Program-made: the position numbers and the translations under genes
The notes under the pieces: generated by a model
Database searches by the model: none
Seen by the model: the letters and a program-made list of their open reading frames with translations, nothing else
Told to the model about the DNA's origin: nothing
Origin: Thermodesulfobacteriota bacterium
Lineage (GTDB): Bacteria > Desulfobacterota > Desulfarculia > JACQYL01
NCBI GenBank assembly: GCA_963675595.2
Contig: CAXXLZ010000001.1
Coordinates: 1,536,001 to 1,600,000 of the forward strand
Direction of reading: 5' to 3'
Length of the DNA stretch: 64,000 nucleotides
Shown here: piece after piece, positions 6,401-18,399 of the stretch
How the letters are laid out: each line of letters begins with the position of its first letter
How positions within the stretch are numbered: the first letter of the stretch is position 1

Positions 6401-7286
6401 CCAAAGTGATGAGGGCCCGCACACGGCCGCTTCCCGCAACAAAGTACAGCACCGCGCCATAGTCCAACAAACCGGTGCCCTCCGTGTCCCGGAGCGTCCC
6501 GGAAACCCGCACGGACGCCAGGCACGGACCCTGTTCCTGAACTTCCACGGCCTCCGGCGCGGACCCATACGAAGTGTACGCGCGGCCTTCATCATCCGAG
6601 GCCGTCAGTCCGTTCAACACCGAGTCTGTAAGCGTTTCCCCGTCCGAGGTGACGGTCTGCAGGAGGCTGCCGGCCGTGCGGTTCACCACGAAACGCACCG
6701 CACCCGTATCGATTTCCACCCGATCCTCCAGTTCCGTGACCGTCACCGACGACGCTGGAATCGCGGGTTCCCCTTGCGTCAGAGAGAACGCCTGCTCAGC
6801 CTCAGCCGGAATGGAACCGATGAACCGCGCCAACAACCACTTGATGGGAGCATCGGATGGGTCCGGCCCTCCCCGCCAACGAGCCTCCACGGAAAACTGC
6901 ACCGGCACCGGATTTCCTTCTTCGTCCACCATGGACAAATTGGCCGTGTTCAGCAGGTTCAACGATTGAGGGATGGGCACCCCCACGGTGATCAGTTCAT
7001 GGCTTCGTTCCACCGCCGACGGATTGGACACGGTTAGCGGCACGGACAACGCCGCCTCACCGGAAGAAACATTGAGCAAAGAAATGACCAATGAAAGGGC
7101 TAACACAGGGAAAGATGACCGGATACAGCGGGAAATTCGGGAAAACCTTTTGAAAAAGGTTTTCCCGAACCCTTTCCCAAACTTTCTGAGTGGGTTGCTC
7201 TCTCCGGACAAGTTGCCGCGTTTGTAGACCGGGGAGAGCGCCGTTCCCCCGGAATCCCTGTAGATAGGTGTGAAAGATCCAGTCAT
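3402..7286 (-). CDS. Large secreted multidomain protein: exo-rhamnogalacturonan-lyase (PcRGLX/YetA)-like core, acidic Gly/Asp linker, CBM-like domain, C-terminal DNRLRE-like domain
   Basis: Hydrophobic signal VLALSLVISLLNVSSGEA-A; PLTVSN...VGVPIP...W..G...IKWL start typical of the PcRGLX-like N-terminal barrel; NLVLNG..W CBM-like start; DATI...NYG...RALVVFDL DNRLRE-like motif; GGGGG RBS before ATG 7286. Confidence 0.6.
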   Translation of the reverse strand: MTGSFTPIYRDSGGTALSPVYKRGNLSGESNPLRKFGKGFGKTFFKRFSRISRCIRSSFPVLALSLVISLLNVSSGEAALSVPLTVSNPSAVERSHELITVGVPIPQSLNLLNTANLSMVDEEGNPVPVQFSVEARWRGGPDPSDAPIKWLLARFIGSIPAEAEQAFSLTQGEPAIPASSVTVTELEDRVEIDTGAVRFVVNRTAGSLLQTVTSDGETLTDSVLNGLTASDDEGRAYTSYGSAPEAVEVQEQGPCLASVRVSGTLRDTEGTGLLDYGAVLYFVAGSGRVRALITLGNHREALVRPTGTGYDVFDYQGGNSVNVEGLSWRINLAQTGESMTVRLADGREVQGQGVEVYQDSSGGAYWDRYGEEEHPRPNSYSVFDGYRVYDEDEAVGSGSRYAGWMALQTGDTALSVGIRDFWQTYPKGLRAADDGRVDVDLFPARYAAPYNFRVGEEITSEVVLDFAPTDAAGDPGLEPLYAWAPPEWFAESGALPAFSVPKTDLEDRLGGADTLNDAGKYEYFNDRTLLPDPAQTALYYYEFHSLWVSDSSAPSALEYFDFYGYNQYGNQPLDFEMFDGGKAGFFNGKYDLTWGAWVQFLRTRDPRWSDMALAFSRHAEQIMLHDVITETGWDIYRWKDALFGHSQHNESGNWNGVRNYLGPVADTAYGARGAALHYYLTGDPVSLRFVKKAGEYAYNFYLDRREGDYLMGSGERPMGNVITMLTEAFALSGDDKYADLAMEIIRFYDPELQPYINGPIEQEGYVAPWMLCMYLTAVGRFADECRSAGRVEDAETCETMLVRYATWMADNALFDYEGRRTTYYHYQVDGDNAQTADMVNNWMLTVADTMAYAYRFSGEERFLEEAARLFATGVNNPFYFGSPLVYSTVKEAVNHAVFGHQYLALAGEDDDGSGGDDGGGDDGGDDGGDDGGDDGGDDGSGGEDPEPPVDNLVLNGQADDGLNHWDTRFGEIRVTWEDDNPLFALSAGHVFQDIDLSAFSSGGVNVTLSARMRSAAAESGDGSPYLYGYLMGTEDDPKRINTYMTTTPVQGDQWELRSATYPVPAGTVRLRIFLKSVRTLSGRVSEEALFDDVTVTLESDTSRTVELSAAADATIATPAPNGNYGASGDLIAYNGLSPAYRALVVFDLDDLPSGADVGRAELRMFCTRSDGKDNAVYALAAPWEEGTGTYGNTVDGASWNTSDGVTPWSVPGGDLVPDRDFGMGTDGLVDVRPTAEGEVIFDVTEAVRAWLSGDLPNYGLAVVMPSDTYYSATWYGSRESATPQHRPVLTVELR
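4470..4546 (-). repeat. 12-nt coding tandem repeat encoding a (GGDD)n linker
   Basis: CCATCGTCTCC(C/G)-like units; protein GGDDGGGDDGGDDGGDDGGDDGGDDG. Confidence 0.9.
7134..7200. repeat. Palindromic repeat, family B copy 1 (inside the 5' coding region of the 1294-aa gene)
   Basis: Reverse complement GAGCAACCCACTCAGAAAGTTTGGGAAAGGGTTCGGGAAAACCTTTTTCAAAAGGTTTTCCCG matches 9197-9259. Confidence 0.8.
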
Positions 7287-7487: not shown

Positions 7488-7575
7488 AAGCCGCTCCGCC
7501 GCAGGCGGTGCGGACGCGCTCCGGAGTTTTGCGGGGGGTCCGGGGGGCGCTTTTTCCAAAAGCGCCCCCCGGTAT
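7488..7575. repeat. Palindromic intergenic repeat, family A copy 2
   Basis: AAGCCGCTCCGCCGCAGGCGGTGCGG...AGTTTTGCGGGGGGTCCGGGGGGCGCTTTTTCCAAAAGCGCCCCCCGGTAT. Confidence 0.85.
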
Positions 7576-7602: not shown

Positions 7603-8955
7603 TCAGAGGAGCCACACCGGTACCTGCTCCCGACTGAACACATCCTGGATGGTTTCCCGGCGTCGGATCAGGGCATGCCGTTCCCCATTCACCAGCACGG
7701 AGGCTGATCGCGGCATGGCGTTGGCCTGATTGGCAAAGGCCTCGTTGTACGCTCCCATGCTCAAAAACGCGATGCAGTCTCCCCGCTCAATGGGCGGCAT
7801 GAGCCGCTCCTTGGCCAGGATGTCCGCCGCGTTGCACAGGGGTCCGCAGATATCCACGGTTTGCGTGCCTTCAGCATCGGCCCGGTGCGCGATCACCGCG
7901 GGATGGTAGCCGGAAAACGGGTCGAAGGGGTCCCCCATTTCGTTGATGCTGCCGTCCACGTATACCCATTGCTTGGTGGTGAGCTTCCGGTCCCGCTTGA
8001 TGTTGCCGGCGCGGGTCACGTACACGGCGGCGTCCTCCCAGCACCACCGGCCCGGCTCCAGAACCAGGCGGGGCAAGGTCACGCCCAGGTCCTCGCAAGC
8101 CGCTCGCACGGTGGACGTGATCCCTTGGGCGTGCCGTTCCAAGGGGAAGGGGTTCTCGACGCCCACGCGGGTCTTGGGAAACCCGCCGCCCAGGTTGAGT
8201 GTCCGTGGAAACCACCCGAAACGGTTCTTCACTTCCCCGAGATACCGCATCAGTTCCTGCGTCTCTTCCAGGGAATACCCGGCTCGGCGCGGAATCCCGC
8301 CATGATAATGCACGCCCGACAGATCGATGTTCGGGGCATGTAGACCTCGTTCCACGGCCCGCAGGAACAGGTCCGGCTCCATGCCGAACTTGAACTCCCG
8401 TTCCCATTGAGACACGTCAATGCCCGGCGGCCGGTAGCGCGGATCCACAAACATTTTCCCTTGCAGGGCTTCCAGGGGCAGACGAACACGCAGACTCACG
8501 CGGGCCGTCTTCTTTTCCGCCTCGGCGAATTCCAGGACCCGCTCCAGCTCTTCAAAGTCGTCCACGTTGATCTGGGCGCCTGTATGGAGTGCGGCCGAAA
8601 GCACTTCGTCGGACTTGTTGGTGCCGTTCATCACGATGCGGTCCGCCGGAGTTCCGGCCATGAGGGCCACGTACAGCTCCCCCATGCCGAAGGCGTCCCC
8701 TCCCCCGCCCTCCGCCGTGATGACCTTGCGCAGAGCCAAGCTGGTATTGGCCTTCATACCCACGCACACCAGGAGTTCCCCGGGATAGCGGCTCTTGAAG
8801 GTATGATGGAAGGTCCGGTAGTTGTTCCGAACGGCGTTTTCCGAAGTGACGAACAACGGGGTCCCATATCGCTCCGCCAGGTCCGTCACCCGCTGTTCTT
8901 CGATCCACAGTTCCCCGCCTTTTTCGTAGATGTATTCGCCGTGCAGGTCTCGCAT
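7603..8955 (-). CDS. PLP-dependent decarboxylase, diaminopimelate decarboxylase (LysA) family, non-canonical active site
   Basis: YGTPLFV, PLP lysine GMKAN, KFGM, LNLGGGF, LEPGR, GPLC, GAY motifs; start placed at ATG 8955 behind a GGGGGAG RBS. Confidence 0.85.
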   Translation of the reverse strand: MRDLHGEYIYEKGGELWIEEQRVTDLAERYGTPLFVTSENAVRNNYRTFHHTFKSRYPGELLVCVGMKANTSLALRKVITAEGGGGDAFGMGELYVALMAGTPADRIVMNGTNKSDEVLSAALHTGAQINVDDFEELERVLEFAEAEKKTARVSLRVRLPLEALQGKMFVDPRYRPPGIDVSQWEREFKFGMEPDLFLRAVERGLHAPNIDLSGVHYHGGIPRRAGYSLEETQELMRYLGEVKNRFGWFPRTLNLGGGFPKTRVGVENPFPLERHAQGITSTVRAACEDLGVTLPRLVLEPGRWCWEDAAVYVTRAGNIKRDRKLTTKQWVYVDGSINEMGDPFDPFSGYHPAVIAHRADAEGTQTVDICGPLCNAADILAKERLMPPIERGDCIAFLSMGAYNEAFANQANAMPRSASVLVNGERHALIRRRETIQDVFSREQVPVWLL

Positions 8956-9029
8956 GGACTCCCCCGCTCTGTTGGAATGGATCGGTTGGTGGTTGCGGGC
9001 ACTTGTCCCGTACTGATTCATCAGGATCA

Positions 9030-9259
9030 CCGGGGGAACGAGGTTCCCCCGGACCCCCTCGTGCGGGCTTCGTCCCTAAAGGAACGCAGCCGGCGCTGAA
9101 AAACACGGATTTACGGGGGAGCTTCTGAAAAAGTTCCCCTACGGTCCCCCCCTGAAATGGTTCAAGCAGGCCTCATCCCGGTTGCGAAGCGAAAGCGAGC
9201 AACCCGCTTAAAAAGTTTGGGAAGGGTTGCAGGGAAACCTTTTCCAAAAGGTTTCCCTG
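9030..9259. repeat. Cluster of palindromic elements including family B copy 2 (9197-9259)
   Basis: Hairpins CGGGGGAACGAGGTTCCCCCG, GGGGAGCTTCTGAAAAAGTTCCCC, GGTTGCG...AGCAACC and CAGGGAAACCTTTTCCAAAAGGTTTCCCTG. Confidence 0.7.
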
Positions 9260-9822
9260 TCTTCTTCTATGAGATATTCCCTGCTTGCCTCTGAAGCGTG
9301 CACATACGCCGCGTCGGACGGTGCCTGCCGGGTCGGGGGTTCCGGTTTTCCGAGAAAGAGGGACACCACGGCCAGGATCGTGCCCAGGAAGAACAGGGCC
9401 CCGCCTACGGACAGGAGGCGGTGTTTGCATTTGGCCGATTTTCGGTAGAATTCCTCGATGGTGAGGGGGTCCTTTTTGTTCTTGCGGGGAGTCAGCCTAC
9501 GGGGGCAATCCTCCAGTACGTTGTAGCGGCGGGGAAACAGGGCCAGGAAGGTGAGCACGGCCGCGACCAACCAGCAAAGGAACACCACGAACAAACAGGA
9601 GGGGCAGAGCACCGCGTCCTTGCCGGCCGCCAGGGTCAGGGCCGCGGCGTAAAGGCCGGGGACGCCCAGTTCCAGTTTGAGCATCTCCCGAGCCGTGTCG
9701 TCCAGGCGTTGGACCTGGCGGACCGTTTCCTCGCGAAACGCGGCCACCAGGAATTCATCGCCGGGTGTGGGCGGTACGGTCCGGACAACGTCCGGGTCCC
9801 TGTGATTCCGTGGTTCCGTCAT
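9208..9822 (-). CDS. Three-TM membrane protein, Pycsar-effector (PycTM)-like topology; putative toxic effector
   Basis: Hydrophobic segments LGVPGLYAAALTLAA, CLFVVFLCWLVAAVLTFLALF followed by PR, and LLSVGGALFFLGTILAVVSLFLG preceded by basic residues; co-oriented downstream of the CHAT-STAND gene. Confidence 0.55.
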   Translation of the reverse strand: MTEPRNHRDPDVVRTVPPTPGDEFLVAAFREETVRQVQRLDDTAREMLKLELGVPGLYAAALTLAAGKDAVLCPSCLFVVFLCWLVAAVLTFLALFPRRYNVLEDCPRRLTPRKNKKDPLTIEEFYRKSAKCKHRLLSVGGALFFLGTILAVVSLFLGKPEPPTRQAPSDAAYVHASEASREYLIEEDRETFWKRFPCNPSQTF

Positions 9823-9921
9823 GAAAATGAAGGGCCTTGAGGGTGATAGGGTTTAAGGGCCGGTCGGGGTAAACCCGCCGGGCTCGGTGAGGCGATGCCT
9901 CCGTTCCCGAACCGGTGTGCT

Positions 9922-10209
9922 TCACTCTTTCTCCTGAGGCCGGGAGCCAAACACCCGACCGGCCAAAGCGTCCACCGGCAGGTCGTGCAGCGGAGGGAGA
10001 ACCGTCGTGCCGCCCTGATTGATGTCGAGGTACACGTCCACCCTCGCCACCTGATCCGCCGACAGTTCCACGGCGCAATTCGCCCTGCAATAGGGGCAGT
10101 CAACCAACTTGATCACTCGGTTCGACTCATCCACGTCTTGCTCCCAAATACGGAGGTGAAACGTGTGCTCGCACTTCCAACATTGTACCTTCATGGTGGG
10201 GTTGGCCAT
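9922..10209 (-). CDS. Small Zn-ribbon protein (CWKC...CPYC)
   Basis: Two CxxC pairs; GGAG RBS; starts 18 nt after the stop of the CHAT-STAND-TPR gene. Confidence 0.7.
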   Translation of the reverse strand: MANPTMKVQCWKCEHTFHLRIWEQDVDESNRVIKLVDCPYCRANCAVELSADQVARVDVYLDINQGGTTVLPPLHDLPVDALAGRVFGSRPQEKE

Positions 10210-10227
10210 GGTGTTCTCCAGCGTTGT

Positions 10228-13200
10228 TCAAAGCAGGTCGAATTTCACGCCCCGGGCTTTGGCCTGTTGCAATTGTTCCTCCCAAAAGGCCAAGCCGTTT
10301 TGTCCCATTCGGCGAGCCAGTTCATCCAGAGCCGTCAGCACCTGGGCCAGTTGGATTTTTTTGGCCAGGGCATAGGCACTCACCCAGGTCGACATGGCCT
10401 CCTCATGCTTATTCTTATGGGTGTGAATGAGCCCCATGTTGAACAAAGCATGACATAACCCAAAGACCTCACCGACCTCCCCCAGAATGGCCAGCGATTG
10501 CTTCAAATACTGCAACGCACCGTCATATTCGCCTCGCGCTTGGTAAATTTGAGAGATATTATTCAAGGAGGCTGCTTCGCCCTTTCGGTCCCCGATCTCC
10601 CTCTGAATGGCCAACGATTGGTTCAGATACTCCAACGCACTACTATAGTCCCCTAAAGCGTGCGCCGAAGTGGCCATATTGTTCAGGGCGGCGGCCTCGC
10701 CAAATCGGTATCTGATTTCTCTTTGAATGGCCAGCGATTGCTTCAGAAGCTTCAACGCAGTGCTATGGTCACCTCGGGCTTGGTGTACTTGCGAAATATT
10801 GATCAAGGAGGCTGCTGTGCCTTTTCGGTCCCCGATCTCCCTCTGAATGGCCAACGATTGATTCAAATACTCAAGTGCTGGGTCATACTCCCCCCGGGCT
10901 TCATATATTAACGAAATATTATTCAGGGTGGTGCCTTCGCCTTTTGGGTCTCCGATCTCCCTTTGAATCGCCAGCGATTGGTTCAGATACTCCAGCGCCC
11001 TTTCATTGTCCCCTCGGGCCTTATATATCTGCGAAATATTGTTCAGGGTGGCGCCTTCGCCCCTTCGGTCTCCGATTTTTCTTCTAATGGCCAGCGACTG
11101 GCTCAGATAATCTCGTGCCGTGTCGTAGTCACCTCGATCGTGCGCAACCATACCCATGCTATTGAGGCAGGTAGCTTCGCCGAATCGGTCTTGGATTTCC
11201 CTACATATGGCCATCGATTGATTCAGACACTCCAACTCCCTGTCAACGTCGCCTCGGACACCATAGATCTGCGAAATATTATTTAGGGTGGCTGCTGCGC
11301 CTTTTCGGTCCCCTATATCGCCGACTATGGCCATCGATTGATTCAGATACACTAGAGCAGTATCAAAATCTCCTCGCGCCTGGTAGATTTGGGAAATATT
11401 ATTCAGGGTGGCACACTCTCCGGCTCTTTCTCCAATGTCCCTGACTATCGCGAGCGATTGCTTTAGATACTGCAATGCTGTAGCACTGTCTCCTGTTTGA
11501 TGCGTACACATACCTTGAAAGTTGAGTGCCATGGCGCAGGTCTTTTTGGATGAAGATTCCAGCAAGGGAGGCAACCAGGTGGTGCGCAGGCTCTGATACA
11601 TGCCTCTCTTCATGAAATGGTCGGCCAAATAATCCAGGACCAGTTGATGGGCTTCCTCCATCCGCTCCGCTTTGACCAAAGCGCCGTGGCAGACAATCGC
11701 ATGCGAAATAAAGGGCTTGAGTTGCCTCAGCACCCGCAGTTGATGATCCGCCGCGCGCTCCCGAATCTCCTGTTCCGGGGCCGGCTCGACCCTATCCAAC
11801 CATTCGACCAACACGGGATTGAGGCTGTAGCAGGGCAGCATCAGGCCATCGTCCCGGCTCACGTCCAACAGGGAATAAGCCACCAAGTTTTCCAGCAGGC
11901 CTTCCGGGCCTTCCAGGTCACGAGCCATGAGGAATACCCCGTCCTCGATGACCGGCACGTCGTAGGCCCGCATGCGGGACAGCAAGGTCCGTTCCTCCGG
12001 CTGCAACCGCTCCACCAGCGATTCCAGGGCGGCATACACCCGCAGTTCCTCTTGGGCCTCGCGGACGCGCTGGAGGAGTGACCCTTCGTCCACCCCCAGG
12101 GCCCCGGCTTGCGCGAAAAACTGCAACCCTTTGAAATTGCCGCCCAACGCCCGGTACACGGCGCGAAGATGGTCCCGCGCCACTCCTCCCACGGCCGGCT
12201 CCTGGGCATACCGCACGAAGTCCCCGTAGCTCGCGGGTTCCAGGGGATGATGCCGGACCTTGGCGCCTTCCAATCCCGGGACCTGCCGACGGGAGGTGAG
12301 GAGGGTCAAGGGAGCCTGTGCCCCCATGGCCGAACACGCTTCCAGCCAAGCCTTCAATTCCGGGTCATTGATTTCCCGCGTGTCCGGGTCCTGCACCGTT
12401 TCCAGATTATCCAGGAGCAGCACCAGGCGCCCTTGGGTCTGATTCATCAACGCGCGGATGAGCAGTTGGTACTGATCCTTGCGGCTGGAGAGCCGTCCCC
12501 AGTTTTGATTGACCTGCTCCGACAGGGAGCCCTCCAGGGTCAGGTGCAGGTCCGTGACAAAGGCGTTCCAGGGGTCCTCCCGCCGGGCCGAATAGGTGAC
12601 CACCGCATGGCCCTTTTCCTCCAGAATCTTGGCCAGGCGGCAGGCCAGGGCGGTCTTGCCCATGCCCCCCATGCCGGTGAGGACCAGCAACCGGGTTGCG
12701 CCGGATTCCAATTCCTTGAGCAAGGTGCGCAGTTCCCGACGCCGTCCGATGAACCGTTCGGGGAATTCCACTCCGGCGTAGCTGTCGTACAAGGGGAGGC
12801 TTTGATGCGGCGGTTCGGGATCGAAGTCCCAGTCCAGCACGCGGGTGTCCGAAGCGCGGGCGTACAGCACGGGCAGGCACCACTGCCCCAGGCCGGTTTC
12901 GCCGCCGTTCCCACTTGCATCCGTGCCACCTCCCATCGGGAGGAACCGGGTCATGGCCTGCCGGGCCGTTTGCAGAGCCGTATCCACCCGCTCCTTCCCG
13001 CCCACGGCGTCGCAGAAGGCCCGGGCGAAGCGGATCCCGGCCAAGTCGAGCACCGGTTCGCGCATGCCGGCCACCAGAGGGATTCCCTGCCGGATCAAGC
13101 CCATGGCCAGTCCCGTGTTCAGGCTGTCCGACGCGATGCGGCCCGACTGACACGCGGAAAGCACCACGGCTCGGGTGTGGGCTTGGCCGGCGAAACACGC

Positions 13201-13902
13201 GGCGATGTCTTCCGCGCTCCTCGGGTCTCCTCGGCCGTCGTCCCTTTCGAACACAAAGAAGGATCGGGCGGGGCCGTCCCCAAAATCGTCTTGTTGGAAC
13301 ATCCCGTGGCCGCTCAGGAACACCACATGATAATCCCCGGCAGCCACCAGCTTCTGAAAGGTGTCGAAACGTCCGTCGTCGGGAGCTTCCAACGTCACCC
13401 AACCGTCCCGCACCCACGGGGTGAAGGCTTCCAGCACGTTCTCCCGTTCGCTTTCCGTGTCCAGGCGGCCCGTTTCCTCCAAATCGTCGGGAAGAGACGT
13501 GAAGAGCAGCACCCGCAAGGGTCCCTTATCCAAAGGAGCCCCGTCGGTTCGGGCCCCGCCCACCCGGCGCAGGAGGGTCACGTGGGGGCTGCACCCCAAA
13601 AAGCCCAACGTGGGGTGATGCAGGGTCTCCCAGGGCAAGGCCATGACGGCCGGGTCTTGGGAAGCGATGACCAACGGAAGAATCAGCGGCTTGGCGTCCT
13701 CCAGGGCCCGTTGGAAGTCGGCTTCCGCATCCAGGGCTTCCCAAAGAGCGCGGCCCATTTGTTCGAGGTCGTCGTCCGTGACGACTTCTTTGTACACGTA
13801 CTTCATGGATAGTTGACGGGCCAGGTGATTCAGGCGGGGGACGCGCTCCAACAGATCACGGGGCGGTTCAAGCACCAGGGGTTCGGCGGTTTCCAAAGGC
13901 AC
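10228..13902 (-). CDS. CHAT (caspase-like) protease - STAND/NB-ARC-type NTPase - TPR repeat protein
   Basis: CHAT motifs LPWETL, FLSGHG (catalytic His) and LSACQSG (catalytic Cys); FIGRRREL, Walker A GMGGMGKT, Walker B LLLDNLE; 40-aa TPR repeats (LNQSLAIQREIGDRKGEA.TLNNISQIY); GTG start with GAGGAG RBS. Confidence 0.9.
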   Translation of the reverse strand: MPLETAEPLVLEPPRDLLERVPRLNHLARQLSMKYVYKEVVTDDDLEQMGRALWEALDAEADFQRALEDAKPLILPLVIASQDPAVMALPWETLHHPTLGFLGCSPHVTLLRRVGGARTDGAPLDKGPLRVLLFTSLPDDLEETGRLDTESERENVLEAFTPWVRDGWVTLEAPDDGRFDTFQKLVAAGDYHVVFLSGHGMFQQDDFGDGPARSFFVFERDDGRGDPRSAEDIAACFAGQAHTRAVVLSACQSGRIASDSLNTGLAMGLIRQGIPLVAGMREPVLDLAGIRFARAFCDAVGGKERVDTALQTARQAMTRFLPMGGGTDASGNGGETGLGQWCLPVLYARASDTRVLDWDFDPEPPHQSLPLYDSYAGVEFPERFIGRRRELRTLLKELESGATRLLVLTGMGGMGKTALACRLAKILEEKGHAVVTYSARREDPWNAFVTDLHLTLEGSLSEQVNQNWGRLSSRKDQYQLLIRALMNQTQGRLVLLLDNLETVQDPDTREINDPELKAWLEACSAMGAQAPLTLLTSRRQVPGLEGAKVRHHPLEPASYGDFVRYAQEPAVGGVARDHLRAVYRALGGNFKGLQFFAQAGALGVDEGSLLQRVREAQEELRVYAALESLVERLQPEERTLLSRMRAYDVPVIEDGVFLMARDLEGPEGLLENLVAYSLLDVSRDDGLMLPCYSLNPVLVEWLDRVEPAPEQEIRERAADHQLRVLRQLKPFISHAIVCHGALVKAERMEEAHQLVLDYLADHFMKRGMYQSLRTTWLPPLLESSSKKTCAMALNFQGMCTHQTGDSATALQYLKQSLAIVRDIGERAGECATLNNISQIYQARGDFDTALVYLNQSMAIVGDIGDRKGAAATLNNISQIYGVRGDVDRELECLNQSMAICREIQDRFGEATCLNSMGMVAHDRGDYDTARDYLSQSLAIRRKIGDRRGEGATLNNISQIYKARGDNERALEYLNQSLAIQREIGDPKGEGTTLNNISLIYEARGEYDPALEYLNQSLAIQREIGDRKGTAASLINISQVHQARGDHSTALKLLKQSLAIQREIRYRFGEAAALNNMATSAHALGDYSSALEYLNQSLAIQREIGDRKGEAASLNNISQIYQARGEYDGALQYLKQSLAILGEVGEVFGLCHALFNMGLIHTHKNKHEEAMSTWVSAYALAKKIQLAQVLTALDELARRMGQNGLAFWEEQLQQAKARGVKFDLL
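10441..11520 (-). repeat. Nine tandem 120-nt coding repeats (40-aa TPR units)
   Basis: CCAGCGATTG-like motif recurs at 10491, 10611, 10731, 10851, 10971, 11091, 11211, 11331 and 11451, an exact 120-nt period. Confidence 0.92.
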
Positions 13903-14228: not shown

Positions 14229-14315
14229 AGCCGCTCCGCTGTGAGCGGTGCGGCCATGCTCGAAGGTTTGGCGGGGGGTCTGGGGGGTGCTTTTTTCAAA
14301 AGCATCCCCCAGTAT
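14229..14315. repeat. Palindromic intergenic repeat, family A copy 3
   Basis: AGCCGCTCCGCTGTGAGCGGTGCGG...GGTTTGGCGGGGGGTCTGGGGGGTGCTTTTTTCAAAAGCATCCCCCAGTAT. Confidence 0.8.
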
Positions 14316-14329
14316 GGGGATCTCCGCGG

Positions 14330-15256
14330 TTAAGCACTAGTCCCCTTGCCCTTTCCCCGCCATTCTCCCAGAAACACGCCCAGGCCCAGGGGGGAAGCAG
14401 CTTTAAGCAGGGATTCCAGGGCCTCGATGAAAGGTTCCTCGCCCCGCCAGAACGGGAACGCGCCCAGGCGTCGGATGAGGGGCGCGGAAGCCGCCGGAGC
14501 TTCCGCCTCGTCCCGGAAATCCACCGGGTCCCCGGATTCCGGTCCCACGCCCCAGAACCGGATCGGGTCCGAGGGGAGGGGTTCCGGAGCGTCCCCACAT
14601 TCTTCTTCCGTCTCCGGGCAAGTTTCCTCATCTTTTACTTTAGGTTTTTGTTTTAAGTATTGACCCAACAGATGGATCAGTTCTTCCCGTTCCAGGCCGC
14701 GAAGCTTGAAGATCAAAAAGGGGTCCCGGTCGAATTCCTCGCCCAGCAGGTAGTGGACGGCCGCGATGTGTTTGCAGGGATTGGACCAGTCCGGGCAGGA
14801 ACACTCCGTGGCGATATCCGCGCTTTTGGTGGGGAACAGGGGCACCCGCGCCCGGCCGAAGACCTCCTCGATGCTTTCGGGCATTTCACCGGCCAGGAGT
14901 CTCGCGGCGAACACGGCGGTTTCCGAAAGCTTTTGGGCCACCAGGGTCCATTGGGCGTCCGTGAGGGTCTTCACCCGCATTGCCACTTTGTACGGTCGGG
15001 CTCGGGAGCCCTGGACCTGCGCGGAAACCGTGCCTTTGCCGATTTCGATGGAAATCACCTGCCCCTTGCGCGCGTAAGTTCTTCCCCGATTCAGGCGCGC
15101 ACCGATGTTGAAGCTTTCAATGATCCCGATCCACCGCTTGGCCCACCAGGATCGGCCGAACCCGCCGCGTTGGGTTTGAGCCTTGATGCCGCCCTTGGCC
15201 TCCCTGGGTTGGGACGGTGGATAGTAGTAATCGTAGTATCCGCGTCGTCGCACCAT
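14330..15256 (-). CDS. SWIM zinc-finger protein (partner of SNF2 ATPase)
   Basis: WWAKRW...RLNRGRTYAR.G.V...VQGS..PY and SWIM motif CSCPDWSNPCKHIAAV...DPFLIFKLRG; ATG 15256 lies 2 nt after the SNF2 stop. Confidence 0.88.
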   Translation of the reverse strand: MVRRRGYYDYYYPPSQPREAKGGIKAQTQRGGFGRSWWAKRWIGIIESFNIGARLNRGRTYARKGQVISIEIGKGTVSAQVQGSRARPYKVAMRVKTLTDAQWTLVAQKLSETAVFAARLLAGEMPESIEEVFGRARVPLFPTKSADIATECSCPDWSNPCKHIAAVHYLLGEEFDRDPFLIFKLRGLEREELIHLLGQYLKQKPKVKDEETCPETEEECGDAPEPLPSDPIRFWGVGPESGDPVDFRDEAEAPAASAPLIRRLGAFPFWRGEEPFIEALESLLKAASPLGLGVFLGEWRGKGKGTSA

Positions 15257-15258
15257 GA

Positions 15259-18200
15259 CTAGGCTCCCGCAAGGTCCTTGTTCAAGGAGAAGAGGTTCTT
15301 CAGTTCCTCGTTGGAAAGTTCGGTGAGCCACCCCTCCCCCGAACCCACCACGTCCTCGGCGATTCCCTTTTTGCGTTCGATCATCTCGTCGATCTTGTCT
15401 TCCAGGGTGCCCGCGCAGATGAATTTGTGCACCTGCACGTTTCGTGTCTGCCCGATGCGAAAGGCCCGGTCCGTGGCCTGGTTTTCCACCGCGGGATTCC
15501 ACCAGCGGTCGAAATGGAACACGTGATTCGCATTGGTGAGGTTCAACCCCACGCCGCCCGCCTTGAGGGACAGGATGAAGAACATGGGCGCATGGGTCGG
15601 GTCCTGAAACCGCTCGACCATGCGTTCCCGCTTTTTGGAGGGAACCCCTCCGTGCAGGAAAAGCGCCTCCATGCCGAAGGTTTCTTCAAGGTATTGACGA
15701 AGGAGTTCTCCCATTTCGGCGAACTGGCTGAAAATCAGGGAGCGTTCCCCCATGTCCACGACCTCCTCGAGCATTTCCGTGAGCCGCTCCAGTTTGCCCG
15801 AACGGCCCGGTACGGAAGAATGATCGCGCAGGAACTGGGCGGGATGATTGCACACCTGCTTGAGCTTGGAAAGGGTCGCCAGCACCAACCCCTTCCGCTG
15901 GATGCCCTCGGCGCCCTCCAACGCCTCGCGGACCTCCTTGAGCACCGCTTCGTACAGGGTGACCTGTTCCTTGGTGAGGGAGCAATAGACCTTCATCTCG
16001 TTCTTTTCCGGCAGGTCCGAAATGATGTTCCGGTCGGTCTTGAGACGGCGCAGAATGAAGGGTCCGGTGATGCGTTTGAGGCGCGACACGGCGTCGGCAT
16101 CGTTTCTCGACTGAATGGGCACGAAGAACCGTTTCTTGAATTCCGCGCGGTTGCCCAGCAGGCCCGGATTGAGGAACTCCATGACGGACCAGAGGTCTCC
16201 CACGTTGTTTTCCACCGGAGTGCCCGTCAAGGCGATGCGGTAGCCCGAGGGCAGGGAGCGCACGGCCCGCGCCTGTTTGGTCTCGGGGTTCTTGATGTTC
16301 TGGGCTTCGTCCACCACCACGCCGTCCCACAGGATTTCCTTGAGGAAACGCACGTCCCTCTGCACCAGAGCGTAGGTCGTGACCACCAGGGCCGACCGGG
16401 CGGCCCGCTTCTTGAAATCCTCCTCCTTCCTGCGGGTCAATCCGTGATGCACGTAAACGGAAAGGTCGGGCGTGAAGCGTTCCGCTTCCTTGCGCCAGTT
16501 CTGGGCCACGCTCATGGGGCAGATGAGCAGCACCGGGCCTTTGCCGTTGTCTTCCCAATCGCGCCGGATCAGGGCCAGGGTCTGAATGGTCTTTCCCAGG
16601 CCCATGTCGTCGGCAAGGCAGGCTCCCAGGCCCCATTGCCGCAGAAAGGCCAGCCAGGAATACCCCCGGACCTGGTAGGGACGAAGCGTGCCGGAAAAAC
16701 TTTCCGGGGGCGGCAGCTCCTCAAACGACCGGCGACCTTCCAGTTGTTCCAGGAACCCCTGAAGCGGGCCCTCGGCTCGAATCCCGTCGAAAGCCAGGCC
16801 GGGAGCCGCTTCCCGGGCTCCCAATTGCAGGTGAACCAGGTCCAGCAGCGTGGCCTCTCGTGCCTTGCGGCTTTTGAGAAAGTCGGCGGCCGCGGCCATC
16901 TCCGAGGCGTTCACTTCCACCCATTGACCCCGAATCTCGACCAGGGGGGCCTTCATCGCGGCCAGGGTCTGAAGTTCCGCAAAGGTCAGTTGCCTCCCGC
17001 CCAATGCCGCTTCCCAGTCGAATCGGACGATGCTGTTGAGGGACAGCAGGCCCGAGCCTTTGGTTTTCTCCGTGCGCACGGCGGCCCGAACCGAGAGCTT
17101 GGCCTTGGCGCCGCTGCGGGTCCACCAGGACGGCACCAGGACGCCGAACCCGGCCTGCTCCAGGGTCGGACTCTTGTCCGTGAGAAACTCGTGCGCGCCG
17201 GGCGTGTCCAGTTCGTATCCGGAGGGCTTTTCGGTATGGAGGCTCCGTTCGATGCGCGGACAGATTCCCGCCGCCTGTCCCAGGGACGCGAGGGCGAATT
17301 CCAGCGGGTCTTCCCCCAAGGCCGCAACCCGCTCCTTTTTTCGCTTAAGGCCGGACCACACGTCTTCCAACGGAATCAACAGGCTCGGATCGTTTCGCGG
17401 ATGAATCAGATAACGAACGAACCAGTTTTTCAGCACTCGTCTGTTGCGCCCCGTGCCCATGACGTTTCCGGGTTCTTCGAGGCGCAGACACAGCCGAAGG
17501 GAAGCGTTGGACAGGGTCTCCAGGCGGCGACGCCAGCGTTTGATCTCCCCGGTCAGTTCCGCCACCTCCCGCTTTTCCGCCTCCACCGCGCCGTCGGGCG
17601 TGGTCAAGGCGTCGAACCAGGCGTCGTGCACGCTTGGAAAGGCGGCGTCACCCCTCCGGGAACGCTTGGCGCTCGTCTTGAACGGGGGCGGAGGGGCGAG
17701 GCGCATCATGGCGTCCACGCTCTCCGCGATGAACGAATGGAGCACCGCTCGAGCCGACGTCGTGGGAGCCTCCCGCGTTCCCGGGTCCGTGAAGGCGCGC
17801 GCAGCCGGGGGCATGCGCTTCGCCAACGCGTCCAGTTGCTCCGCGTCCCTTCCCGGCATCACGGGCTCCCATACGGCCCGGGCCGGTTCTTCGTCCGGCA
17901 ACAGGCCGGGAACGATTCTTCTGCGGGCGATGAGGGAACCGGCGAAACGCAGGGCCTCGGCCCAGAAGGAAACATCGTTTCCCACGACCAGACCTCGGTC
18001 GAGGGTCCGTTTGCCCATGCACGCGCACAGCAGTTCCACGGTTTCCCGCCCGCACAAGGGATAGACCTCCACCAGGCAGGGCTTGAGGAGGGGCTCATCG
18101 TCCGGCCCGGAAAGGTCGGCAATGAGTCCGCTCGACGGCGCCGGGCCCTCCTTGGTCCAGGGAACCCAGAACAGGGCCGTGGGGGGGTTCTTTTCGTGCG

Positions 18201-18399
18201 GGTCGATCCCGATTTCCGTTCCGGCCTTGGTCAAGGCCTCGGCAAGGACCCCGATGCCGGGATCGTAGGGATACCGAACCGACTTGCGTGATTTGGAGGG
18301 TTTCCCGCCGCCGGTGCCGGACCCGACAAATTCGGGGTTCGGAGCTTCGCACCACAAGAACGGAAACCCGAGGTAGACACCCATATGAAGCACGATCAT
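15259..18399 (-). CDS. SWI2/SNF2-family helicase/ATPase with N-terminal extension
   Basis: LRPYQ, LADDMGLGKT, DEAQNIKN, LTGTPVEN, SLKAGGVGLNLT, RWWNPAVENQATDRAFRIGQ. Confidence 0.95.
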   Translation of the reverse strand: MIVLHMGVYLGFPFLWCEAPNPEFVGSGTGGGKPSKSRKSVRYPYDPGIGVLAEALTKAGTEIGIDPHEKNPPTALFWVPWTKEGPAPSSGLIADLSGPDDEPLLKPCLVEVYPLCGRETVELLCACMGKRTLDRGLVVGNDVSFWAEALRFAGSLIARRRIVPGLLPDEEPARAVWEPVMPGRDAEQLDALAKRMPPAARAFTDPGTREAPTTSARAVLHSFIAESVDAMMRLAPPPPFKTSAKRSRRGDAAFPSVHDAWFDALTTPDGAVEAEKREVAELTGEIKRWRRRLETLSNASLRLCLRLEEPGNVMGTGRNRRVLKNWFVRYLIHPRNDPSLLIPLEDVWSGLKRKKERVAALGEDPLEFALASLGQAAGICPRIERSLHTEKPSGYELDTPGAHEFLTDKSPTLEQAGFGVLVPSWWTRSGAKAKLSVRAAVRTEKTKGSGLLSLNSIVRFDWEAALGGRQLTFAELQTLAAMKAPLVEIRGQWVEVNASEMAAAADFLKSRKAREATLLDLVHLQLGAREAAPGLAFDGIRAEGPLQGFLEQLEGRRSFEELPPPESFSGTLRPYQVRGYSWLAFLRQWGLGACLADDMGLGKTIQTLALIRRDWEDNGKGPVLLICPMSVAQNWRKEAERFTPDLSVYVHHGLTRRKEEDFKKRAARSALVVTTYALVQRDVRFLKEILWDGVVVDEAQNIKNPETKQARAVRSLPSGYRIALTGTPVENNVGDLWSVMEFLNPGLLGNRAEFKKRFFVPIQSRNDADAVSRLKRITGPFILRRLKTDRNIISDLPEKNEMKVYCSLTKEQVTLYEAVLKEVREALEGAEGIQRKGLVLATLSKLKQVCNHPAQFLRDHSSVPGRSGKLERLTEMLEEVVDMGERSLIFSQFAEMGELLRQYLEETFGMEALFLHGGVPSKKRERMVERFQDPTHAPMFFILSLKAGGVGLNLTNANHVFHFDRWWNPAVENQATDRAFRIGQTRNVQVHKFICAGTLEDKIDEMIERKKGIAEDVVGSGEGWLTELSNEELKNLFSLNKDLAGA

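Follow-up and report, generated by a model that had tools for sequence, protein, structure and literature searches.

A CHAT-STAND-TPR protein, a Zn-ribbon protein and a putatively PycTM-like membrane protein form a conserved three-gene locus, a candidate bacterial cell-death module

A 64,000-nucleotide stretch from the genome of a Thermodesulfobacteriota bacterium (Desulfarculia, JACQYL01; GenBank assembly GCA_963675595.2, contig CAXXLZ010000001.1, positions 1,536,001 to 1,600,000), which is referred to as the window in the following, carries three genes at 9208-13902, which encode an NLR-like CHAT-STAND-TPR protein (hereafter the NLR), a zinc (Zn)-ribbon protein and a small transmembrane (TM) protein. 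With a rough probability of 0.55, we read this locus as an NLR-type three-gene module for cell death or abortive infection, whereby the protease of the NLR would act via the Zn-ribbon protein on a membrane effector. An earlier note, which was made from the nucleotide letters alone, had suggested a defence or cell-death module at this position, and its interpretation as a whole is partly supported by the analysis described here. The three co-oriented open reading frames (ORFs) that it had listed are indeed present on the minus strand.

Results and Discussion

The three genes are linked in distantly related genomes

The earlier note had treated the three genes as one conserved module. This is borne out, as the genes recur jointly in three gene orders and the divergence patterns of their products agree. 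When the alignment of the membrane homologues was scanned against a set with one genome for each species, two loci (L009 and L010) were obtained, which are located 10 kb apart on one contig of an uncultured proteobacterium metagenome-assembled genome (G041). L010 consists of a membrane gene, an 88-aa CWxC...CPYC gene and then a CHAT-STAND-TPR gene of 1058-1080 aa, whose product is 46% identical to the window NLR over 1028 aa, including the non-repeat part. Six further loci (L011-L016) were obtained by a metagenome scan. In L012, L013 and L016 the membrane gene is followed by the Zn-ribbon gene, L015 ends at the membrane gene, and L011 has an NLR gene that diverges from a membrane gene with the Zn-ribbon gene after it. 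The order is thus NLR, Zn-ribbon, membrane gene in the window, the reverse succession in L010, and the divergent arrangement in L011. All three proteins yield the same grouping of the loci in their identity matrices, with the window proteins sharing 44-50% (NLR), 30-47% (membrane protein) and 28-34% (Zn-ribbon protein) identity with the others, and the 16S sequence of the window's genome (G000) is about 81% identical to those of G041 and G089.

The linkage was also counted from each gene in 93 genomes of the order to which G041 belongs, whereby these genomes are kin and the counts are therefore not independent events. The Zn-ribbon profile matched 13 of the 93 genomes. Among 13 newly taken Zn-ribbon loci an NLR homologue adjoins in 11, one locus ends at the Zn-ribbon gene and one retains a remnant of the NLR start only. 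A search with residues 1-780 of the NLR gave 15 loci in 12 genomes. The Zn-ribbon gene is adjacent at 12 of these, which corresponds to 12 of the 14 scorable NLR orthologue loci; two loci lack an adjacent Zn-ribbon gene (L089 with an intact and L090 with a frameshifted NLR gene), and one lies at a contig start. The membrane profile matched 14 places in 11 genomes, and all eight whole-gene places adjoin a Zn-ribbon gene (a frameshift breaks one of the eight genes, that of G052, into two matches), whereas the other five matches are truncated fragments. In a sample of 401 genomes from the window's own phylum, the membrane family was found in five genomes and NLR homologues (E<=1e-30) in three, all of which are among the five. 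In one of them, G510, a 76-aa Zn-ribbon homologue (hidden Markov model E 8.7e-7) is encoded directly upstream of the NLR homologue, and the membrane gene is located on another contig. The independent evidence for the linkage consists of the three gene orders, the 16S distance (about 81% identity) and the congruent identity matrices. The linkage of the three genes is not due to chance, and no partner accompanies the NLR more constantly than the Zn-ribbon protein.

The Zn-ribbon gene is constant and the membrane slot is exchangeable

The earlier note had described a 95-aa protein with two CxxC motifs that starts 18 nt after the NLR gene, and both motifs are found in the translation (CWKC at 10-13, CPYC at 38-41). 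A profile search yielded 43 Zn-ribbon clusters at 90% identity, some of which are labelled by their source as Candidatus Competibacter or Contendobacter. The four cysteines are invariant in 34 of 34 family sequences, and the family shares a conserved C-terminal tail, DLxxPxALxxxxFxGxxP. The AlphaFold2 model of the 95-aa protein is of low confidence, with a predicted local distance difference test (pLDDT) score of 61; it shows the beta-strands of the ribbon and a disordered tail (63-79). No family of Pfam, NCBIfam or PADLOC could be assigned to either of the two small proteins. Both small ORFs are real genes rather than chance reading frames.

In five related loci (L038, L040, L041, L043 and L044), and likewise in L091, the membrane gene is replaced by a gene for a 150-aa 2-TM protein, which is located between the Zn-ribbon gene and the NLR gene. 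The Zn-ribbon protein of the 2-TM variants has an added proline-rich tail, and in L040 the Zn-ribbon and 2-TM genes overlap by 4 nt. With either type of membrane gene, the Zn-ribbon protein keeps its ribbon core and its tail motif, DLxxPGALLxQVFxGxxP. The membrane slot is thus exchangeable and the Zn-ribbon is not. Since core and tail are conserved whichever membrane gene is present, we infer that they serve the constant partner, which is the NLR. Homology of the 2-TM protein to the membrane family of the window was considered and rejected (hhalign probability 0.3%). The 2-TM protein has no Pfam or PADLOC match. SLATT_4 is annotated on 48-58% of the members of its nearest Atlas clusters (score 0.95), and the NCBIfam SLATT_4 model gives a weak match (E 0.027, 14 bits against a cut-off of 55), so that these are leads towards a SLATT_4 relation and not a family membership.

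Upstream of the SLATT-like variant, a divergent gene for an HSP90/HATPase_c_3-type ATPase of about 620 aa was observed in L040 (6005-7873) as well as in L042 and L043, which gives a weak match to the PADLOC model TmtA (E 1.6e-8). As these genomes are close kin, this synteny may be meaningless.

The NLR combines a CHAT protease, a P-loop NTPase and a TPR array

The large protein shows the tripartite STAND/NLR layout in Pfam, with an N-terminal CHAT effector domain, a central P-loop NTPase and a C-terminal repeat sensor. All motifs named in the earlier note were recovered from the translation, namely SGHG (197-200) and SACQSG (249-254) of the CHAT domain and GMGGMGKT (410-417) and LLLDNLE (495-501) of the P-loop domain, and the TPR array was confirmed by TPR_12 matches in six stretches (E 3.8e-72). 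Over aa 383-523 the models AAA_16 (44.4 bits), ATPase_2 (35.3 bits) and NACHT (28.8 bits) all exceed their Pfam cut-offs. In nine of nine aligned NLR orthologues His199, Cys251, G412/G413/G415/K416/T417 and D498 are invariant, whereby His199 and Cys251 presumably constitute the catalytic dyad, as judged from caspase-fold motifs. Its N-terminal sequence, PLETAEPLVLEPP, can be aligned with MPxxxxxPLILQPP, the start that is conserved among the orthologues.

A profile search of the PDB with the NLR alignment returned TPR proteins only, among which the TPRs of LGN/Pins and of kinesin light chain are closest, and a PDB sequence search with aa 1-780 returned P-loop fragments only. From PADLOC-DB v2.0.0, the NLR matched a generic TPR model (E 4.7e-54) and, weakly and in part, PDC-S39 (1.8e-6), PDC-S27 (0.003) and BovA (0.008); an Avs or bNACHT model was not matched in this database.

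The guanine-cytosine content drops to 0.53-0.54 over the TPR-coding part (window 10001-12000) compared to about 0.61-0.65 around it, which may reflect the amino-acid make-up of the repeats rather than a foreign origin. The CHAT model matches at seven places in G000 (L002-L008 among the loci), one of which encodes a second CHAT-NLR-like paralogue of 1223 aa at G000:C1:1121713-1125381 (E 1e-12 to the window NLR). Genes of the Zn-ribbon or membrane families were not found elsewhere in G000, where the module is single-copy.

The membrane protein is probably a distant relative of PycTM

The 204-aa protein had been described as a three-TM protein. This description holds in part: in a Kyte-Doolittle analysis, two segments (about 67-99 and 134-161) are strongly hydrophobic, whereas the first candidate segment (49-66) is weaker. 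The AlphaFold2 model, which was built from a 90-sequence alignment (pLDDT 88), contains helices at 20-66, 74-95 and 122-157 and a window-specific helix at 170-195. The helix 20-66 is a long N-terminal helix that runs into the first hydrophobic stretch, and a 26-residue loop precedes the third helix. Residues 97-136, which comprise this loop and the start of the following helix, hold 13 Lys/Arg against 5 Asp/Glu, which suggests that the loop is located on the cytoplasmic side. The final approximately 45 residues are absent in every homologue seen, and the last approximately 17 codons fall within a dispersed repeat resembling repetitive extragenic palindromic (REP) elements, in which a hairpin of 12 bp is formed (-27.9 kcal/mol, z -3.3).

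Seven homologues of 117-163 aa, all shorter than the 204-aa protein, were obtained with the latter in a single-sequence search, whereas an exhaustive profile search found 234 clusters (50% identity) at E<=0.001, 154 of them at E<=1e-10. Among the 150 matches listed, nearly all are stand-alone proteins of about 100-240 residues, mostly about 135-200, and apart from the 204-aa protein itself (P0003) and one homologue (P0005) a Zn-ribbon was found within none of the 148 others. The 90 scanned members of the family have no Pfam family in common.

In order to place the family, its 90-member alignment was compared by hhalign with 15 true PycTM proteins from the same phylum. This comparison gave a probability of 89.1% (E 2.3e-6) over 142 columns, spanning nearly the full length, whereby a proline after TM2 and a lysine before TM3, which are conserved in the membrane family as well as in PycTM, align with each other. 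Two other comparisons between TM proteins reached only 0.3-0.4%, so that composition alone cannot explain the score. Three weak pointers had led to PycTM: one homologue carries a precomputed PF18967 label, PycTM is annotated on 16% of the members of one neighbouring Atlas cluster, and the second-best match of the membrane-family profile in the whole of G000 (E 0.044) is the true PycTM gene of that genome. The membrane protein is therefore probably a distant PycTM-like protein, and we do not count it as a member of PF18967.

The true PycTM gene of G000 (G000:C1:1254623-1254949, L073) lies outside the window and stands alone; it encodes a 176-aa protein (Pfam E 1.4e-22). CobD and two small proteins without Pfam match are encoded next to it, and no recognisable cyclase was found within 1.5 kb.

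Layout of the locus and its genomic setting

The features of the locus are compiled in Table 1. The gap between the Zn-ribbon gene and the membrane gene measures 99 nt. Dispersed repeats at 9171-9257 and 14245-14310 bracket the module. If the locus itself is counted, blastn finds up to 30 overlapping matches in G000 for the first repeat and up to 10 for the second.

Table 1. Features of the three-gene locus and its flanks, in window coordinates
Feature	Position	Strand	Basis
CHAT-STAND-TPR (NLR-like) protein gene	10228..13902	minus	1224-aa ORF, GTG start
CHAT caspase-like protease domain, aa 49-318, His199 (SGHG) and Cys251 (SACQSG)	12949..13758	minus	Pfam PF12770, E 3.2e-31
STAND P-loop NTPase core, aa 383-523, Walker A GMGGMGKT, Walker B LLLDNLE	12334..12756	minus	Pfam
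TPR array, about aa 784-1200, presumably the arm that acts as sensor or binds peptides	10303..11553	minus	Pfam TPR_12/TPR_10
18-nt spacer with GGAG, from NLR stop to Zn-ribbon ATG	10210..10227	minus	Sequence
95-aa Zn-ribbon protein gene (CWKC...CPYC)	9922..10209	minus	ORF, ATG start
204-aa membrane protein gene, putative PycTM-like family, core about residues 1-158	9208..9822	minus	ORF, ATG start
REP-like dispersed repeat (9171-9257) with hairpin (scan span 9229-9260), likely terminator or intergenic element	9171..9260		Terminator scan, fold, blastn
Second dispersed-repeat copy, upstream of the module	14245..14310		blastn

The neighbouring genes in the window encode a pyridoxal phosphate-dependent decarboxylase, a large PcRGLX/CBM96 protein, a SWIM-SNF2 pair, a two-component system, chemoreceptors, a TetR regulator and metabolic enzymes. 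The SWIM zinc-finger protein (390 aa) and the SNF2/DUF3670 helicase (1046 aa) are encoded directly upstream of the module on the minus strand (14330-18399). As listed, their ORFs overlap by about 240 nt, and the start of the SWIM gene is therefore probably located further downstream. Further REP-like repeats occur near the decarboxylase gene at 7140-7200 and 7492-7573, with up to about 28 overlapping blastn matches in G000, the locus itself again counted. Four metagenome-type runs gave a single contig joint, 9257>14218 (run X1), which would skip the whole module. It was considered as a module-free deletion variant and rejected as probably an assembly effect, since its shorter side measures only 21 letters and each of its ends falls within a dispersed repeat.

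Comparison with known systems

The building blocks of the locus, i.e., an NLR-like STAND protein, a caspase-like protease and a PycTM-type effector, are familiar, whereas their combination and the Zn-ribbon partner were not found among the PADLOC models or in the literature searched. That literature, with supplementary tables outside the search, held no description of this three-gene combination. Bacterial STAND proteins with caspase-like N-termini form a recognised class (PMC13581612, PMC7159879, PMC10907252), and the tripartite layout of the window NLR is also that of Avs/bNACHT proteins and of the caspase-STAND conflict systems described for multicellular bacteria. It differs from Avs/bNACHT by its two dedicated small partner genes, whereas the Avs proteins that have been described are single polypeptides with fused effectors (PMC10907252).

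PycTM is reported to be the receptor and effector of Pycsar and to disrupt membrane integrity (PMC11224242). The membrane protein resembles it in size and in the succession of helix, TM, TM, Pro, loop, Lys and TM. However, the partners in the module are a protease-NLR and a Zn-ribbon protein, so that activation cannot work as in Pycsar, and a cyclase domain was not found in the three genes or in the scanned neighbours, so that the locus is not a Pycsar system. The 2-TM protein of the variant loci, which is absent from the window, has weak leads towards the SLATT 2-TM effectors of nucleotide-signalling conflict systems, whereas the variant loci lack a nucleotide-generating enzyme.

Bacterial gasdermins adjoin CHAT or C14 proteases, some of which are fused to NACHT or TPR domains, and are activated when the protease cuts off an inhibitory peptide of short length (bioRxiv 10.1101/2021.06.07.447441). 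In the present locus, too, the gene of a sensor-bearing, caspase-like protease adjoins that of a small and putatively membrane-active protein. In contrast to the gasdermin systems, this protein is an integral helical membrane protein and not a soluble pore-former, and a Zn-ribbon protein is added. In type III-E CRISPR, the TPR-CHAT protein Csx29 cleaves the neighbour-encoded Csx30. Craspase (Cas7-11 with Csx29/Csx30) shares with our locus a CHAT protease with a TPR arm and a small neighbour-encoded protein. The arrangement here is CHAT-NTPase-TPR in contrast to TPR-CHAT without an NTPase, and Craspase activation is RNA-guided; CRISPR or Cas7-11 genes were not found among the scanned neighbours, whereby no dedicated CRISPR-array scan was run. 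The earlier note had found neither small protein similar to a gasdermin or to Csx30, and in agreement with this, no such Pfam family matched either of them; indeed neither has any Pfam match above cut-off.

Proposed mechanism

In the mechanism that we propose, a trigger would be bound by the C-terminal TPR arm, upon which the P-loop NTPase would oligomerise and bring the CHAT domains together, so that proteolysis would be switched on by proximity. The Zn-ribbon protein might be a dedicated receptor partner, i.e., an adaptor, an inhibitor or a substrate, which probably docks via its conserved C-terminal tail. The protease would cut the Zn-ribbon protein, or alternatively the membrane protein within its cytoplasmic loop, and the PycTM-like executioner would thereby be freed. 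The latter would be switched by this protease-Zn-ribbon step instead of a cyclic nucleotide, and would then collapse membrane integrity. The trigger, the oligomerisation, the cleavage target, the membrane damage and the presumed role in phage defence are all drawn by analogy to the described systems. The earlier note had ended on the protease releasing a membrane-disrupting effector. The effector part of this idea is plausible, because the membrane protein is apparently a distant relative of PycTM, whereas its release by the protease is a conjecture by analogy.

Several observations weigh against this reading. With regard to the membrane protein, the PycTM relation comes from one profile comparison at 89% probability, none of the 90 scanned family members gave a PycTM match at E<=0.01, and the 204-aa protein has no Pfam PycTM match. 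Foldseek searches with the model of the membrane protein found nothing at E<=0.001 in the PDB, where NINJ1 (9bia_A) appeared with a probability of 0.80 and E 1.5, and nothing significant in BFVD, where an unnamed protein was the best match (E 0.029). From PADLOC-DB v2.0.0, the three genes have the generic TPR match and the weak partial matches only; at the same time, none of its models names the locus, in line with the candidate undescribed module of the earlier note. The window surroundings are of housekeeping and regulatory type and do not constitute a defence island, and the counts from the order of G041 stem from kin genomes.

Moreover, the module is separable. A membrane gene and a Zn-ribbon gene occur without an NLR gene in L009 and L050, L014 holds the membrane gene alone without a Zn-ribbon gene, L089 holds an intact NLR gene with neither small gene over the 6.8 kb upstream and 3.8 kb downstream that are covered, and no Zn-like ORF was found beside the membrane gene in L051 and L053, i.e., in two of the four other membrane-gene-positive genomes of the phylum. 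In L052, a 67-aa Cys/His-rich ORF lies just upstream of the membrane gene. L009 represents a deletion of the NLR gene, in which the first approximately 60 residues of the Zn-ribbon protein are fused to the last approximately 40 residues of the NLR (8564-8884); a YhgA/Transposase_31 gene follows the fusion (8836-9828), and the complete module L010 lies 10 kb away. In L050, which belongs to the window's phylum, the membrane gene is followed by a 65-aa CxxxxC...CPYC ORF, which aligns with the Zn-ribbon family at an hhalign probability of 82% (E 1e-5) over 33 columns.

L050 itself is a small island (8458-10501) inside an operon for a branched-chain amino-acid ABC transporter and contains toxin-antitoxin-like genes. 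It comprises a 93-aa ORF, a 103-aa zinc-finger ORF (weakly YokU-like), the PycTM-like gene, the 65-aa Zn-ribbon ORF, a 72-aa ORF and a PIN-domain gene.

Alternative explanations

The separability would make sense if two units travelled independently on a shared mobile island, namely a cassette of membrane gene and Zn-ribbon gene, acting as a toxin-antitoxin or minimal abortive-infection pair, and a single-gene NLR whose protease is itself the effector and degrades the proteins of the cell, in the way that is reported for type IV Thoeris and its caspase-like protease. Besides the NLR-less pairs (L050 lying among toxin-antitoxin genes) and the solitary NLR of L089, this would account for L012, where no NLR gene follows in the 334 bp after the Zn-ribbon gene, for G451 and G510, where separate contigs carry the membrane gene and the NLR homologue, and for the toxin-antitoxin-like and YhgA-type transposase surroundings in G041 and its relatives. 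A type II toxin-antitoxin pair with the membrane protein as toxin and the Zn-ribbon protein as antitoxin could likewise be read from L009 and L050, but the membrane gene without a Zn-ribbon gene in L014 argues against a strict dependence of the former on such an antitoxin. We nevertheless consider the two-unit explanation rather unlikely. A short three-gene cluster has been kept across three gene orders, with the same divergence pattern in all three proteins, and the spacing is tight (the 18-nt gap in the window, the 4-nt overlap in L040). Furthermore, it is the NLR by which the Zn-ribbon gene stays when the membrane gene is swapped, and in G510 when the latter is located elsewhere, and the Zn-ribbon gene adjoins the NLR at 12 of 14 scorable loci. 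Even less can be said for an adjacency that is fortuitous, or for small ORFs that are not genes: when the 95-aa protein was used alone in a word-based search, nothing but the protein itself was returned, and no homologue of it was found in the 40 nearest genomes, but the conserved families (43 and 234 clusters), the invariant cysteines and motifs and the recurring adjacency refute this explanation.

It might also be that the signal runs in the opposite direction, whereby the membrane protein and the Zn-ribbon protein would form the input, as a sensor of membrane damage or injection with an adaptor to the TPR arm, and CHAT the output. The constancy of the Zn-ribbon protein, whose conserved tail resembles a peptide ligand for a TPR groove, the peptide-binding nature of the closest solved TPRs (LGN/Pins, kinesin light chain) and the variation of the membrane slot, as is often seen for sensors, would all be in line with this. 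However, both occupants of the slot resemble effector families (PycTM-like in one case, SLATT_4 leads in the other), and these tiny membrane proteins have almost no extracytoplasmic part, which makes this direction improbable to our mind. To a physiological or developmental role, in which regulatory proteolysis would act in the manner of HetF or release a membrane-tethered regulator, we give similarly little credence. CHAT is named after a HetF-type role, and the two-component, chemotaxis and metabolic neighbours in the window, the single copy of the module in G000 and the absence of matching defence-system models would suit such a role. A regulator of this kind would hardly be expected to have so patchy a spread, with the Zn-ribbon family in one of 41 genomes (G000 and 40 relatives), the membrane family in 5 of the 401 genomes sampled from the phylum and the Zn-ribbon family in 13 of 93 genomes of the other order, to decay so frequently by frameshifts, deletions and fragmentation, to have toxin-antitoxin and transposase neighbours in other genomes, as at the G041-type loci (toxin-antitoxin-like and YhgA-type), and to include a membrane protein related to an effector family. 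Patchiness, decay, mobile neighbours and effector kinship are thus more easily reconciled with an accessory conflict system than with a core regulator.

Implications

If the three-gene module works as proposed, with protease, Zn-ribbon protein and membrane effector acting in succession, it would represent a second bacterial route from a protease to membrane death besides the gasdermins, and a compact system in which the hand-over of a bacterial NLR signal to a separate executioner could be studied. It would also mean that effector families of cyclic-nucleotide signalling can be rewired to proteolytic control, as the PycTM-like and SLATT-like families have elsewhere been described or predicted as parts of nucleotide-signalling defence systems. 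A more far-reaching idea, which we put forward only tentatively, is a gasdermin-free pathway from caspase to pore, in which NLR-activated CHAT proteases would switch on PycTM-like or SLATT-like helical effectors by proteolysis, with the Zn-ribbon protein as a dedicated adaptor or inhibitor in between. In that case the Zn-ribbon protein would be a universal coupler of protease-NLRs to interchangeable membrane executioners. For two unannotated protein families, with 234 and 43 clusters, respectively, the locus offers a first functional context.

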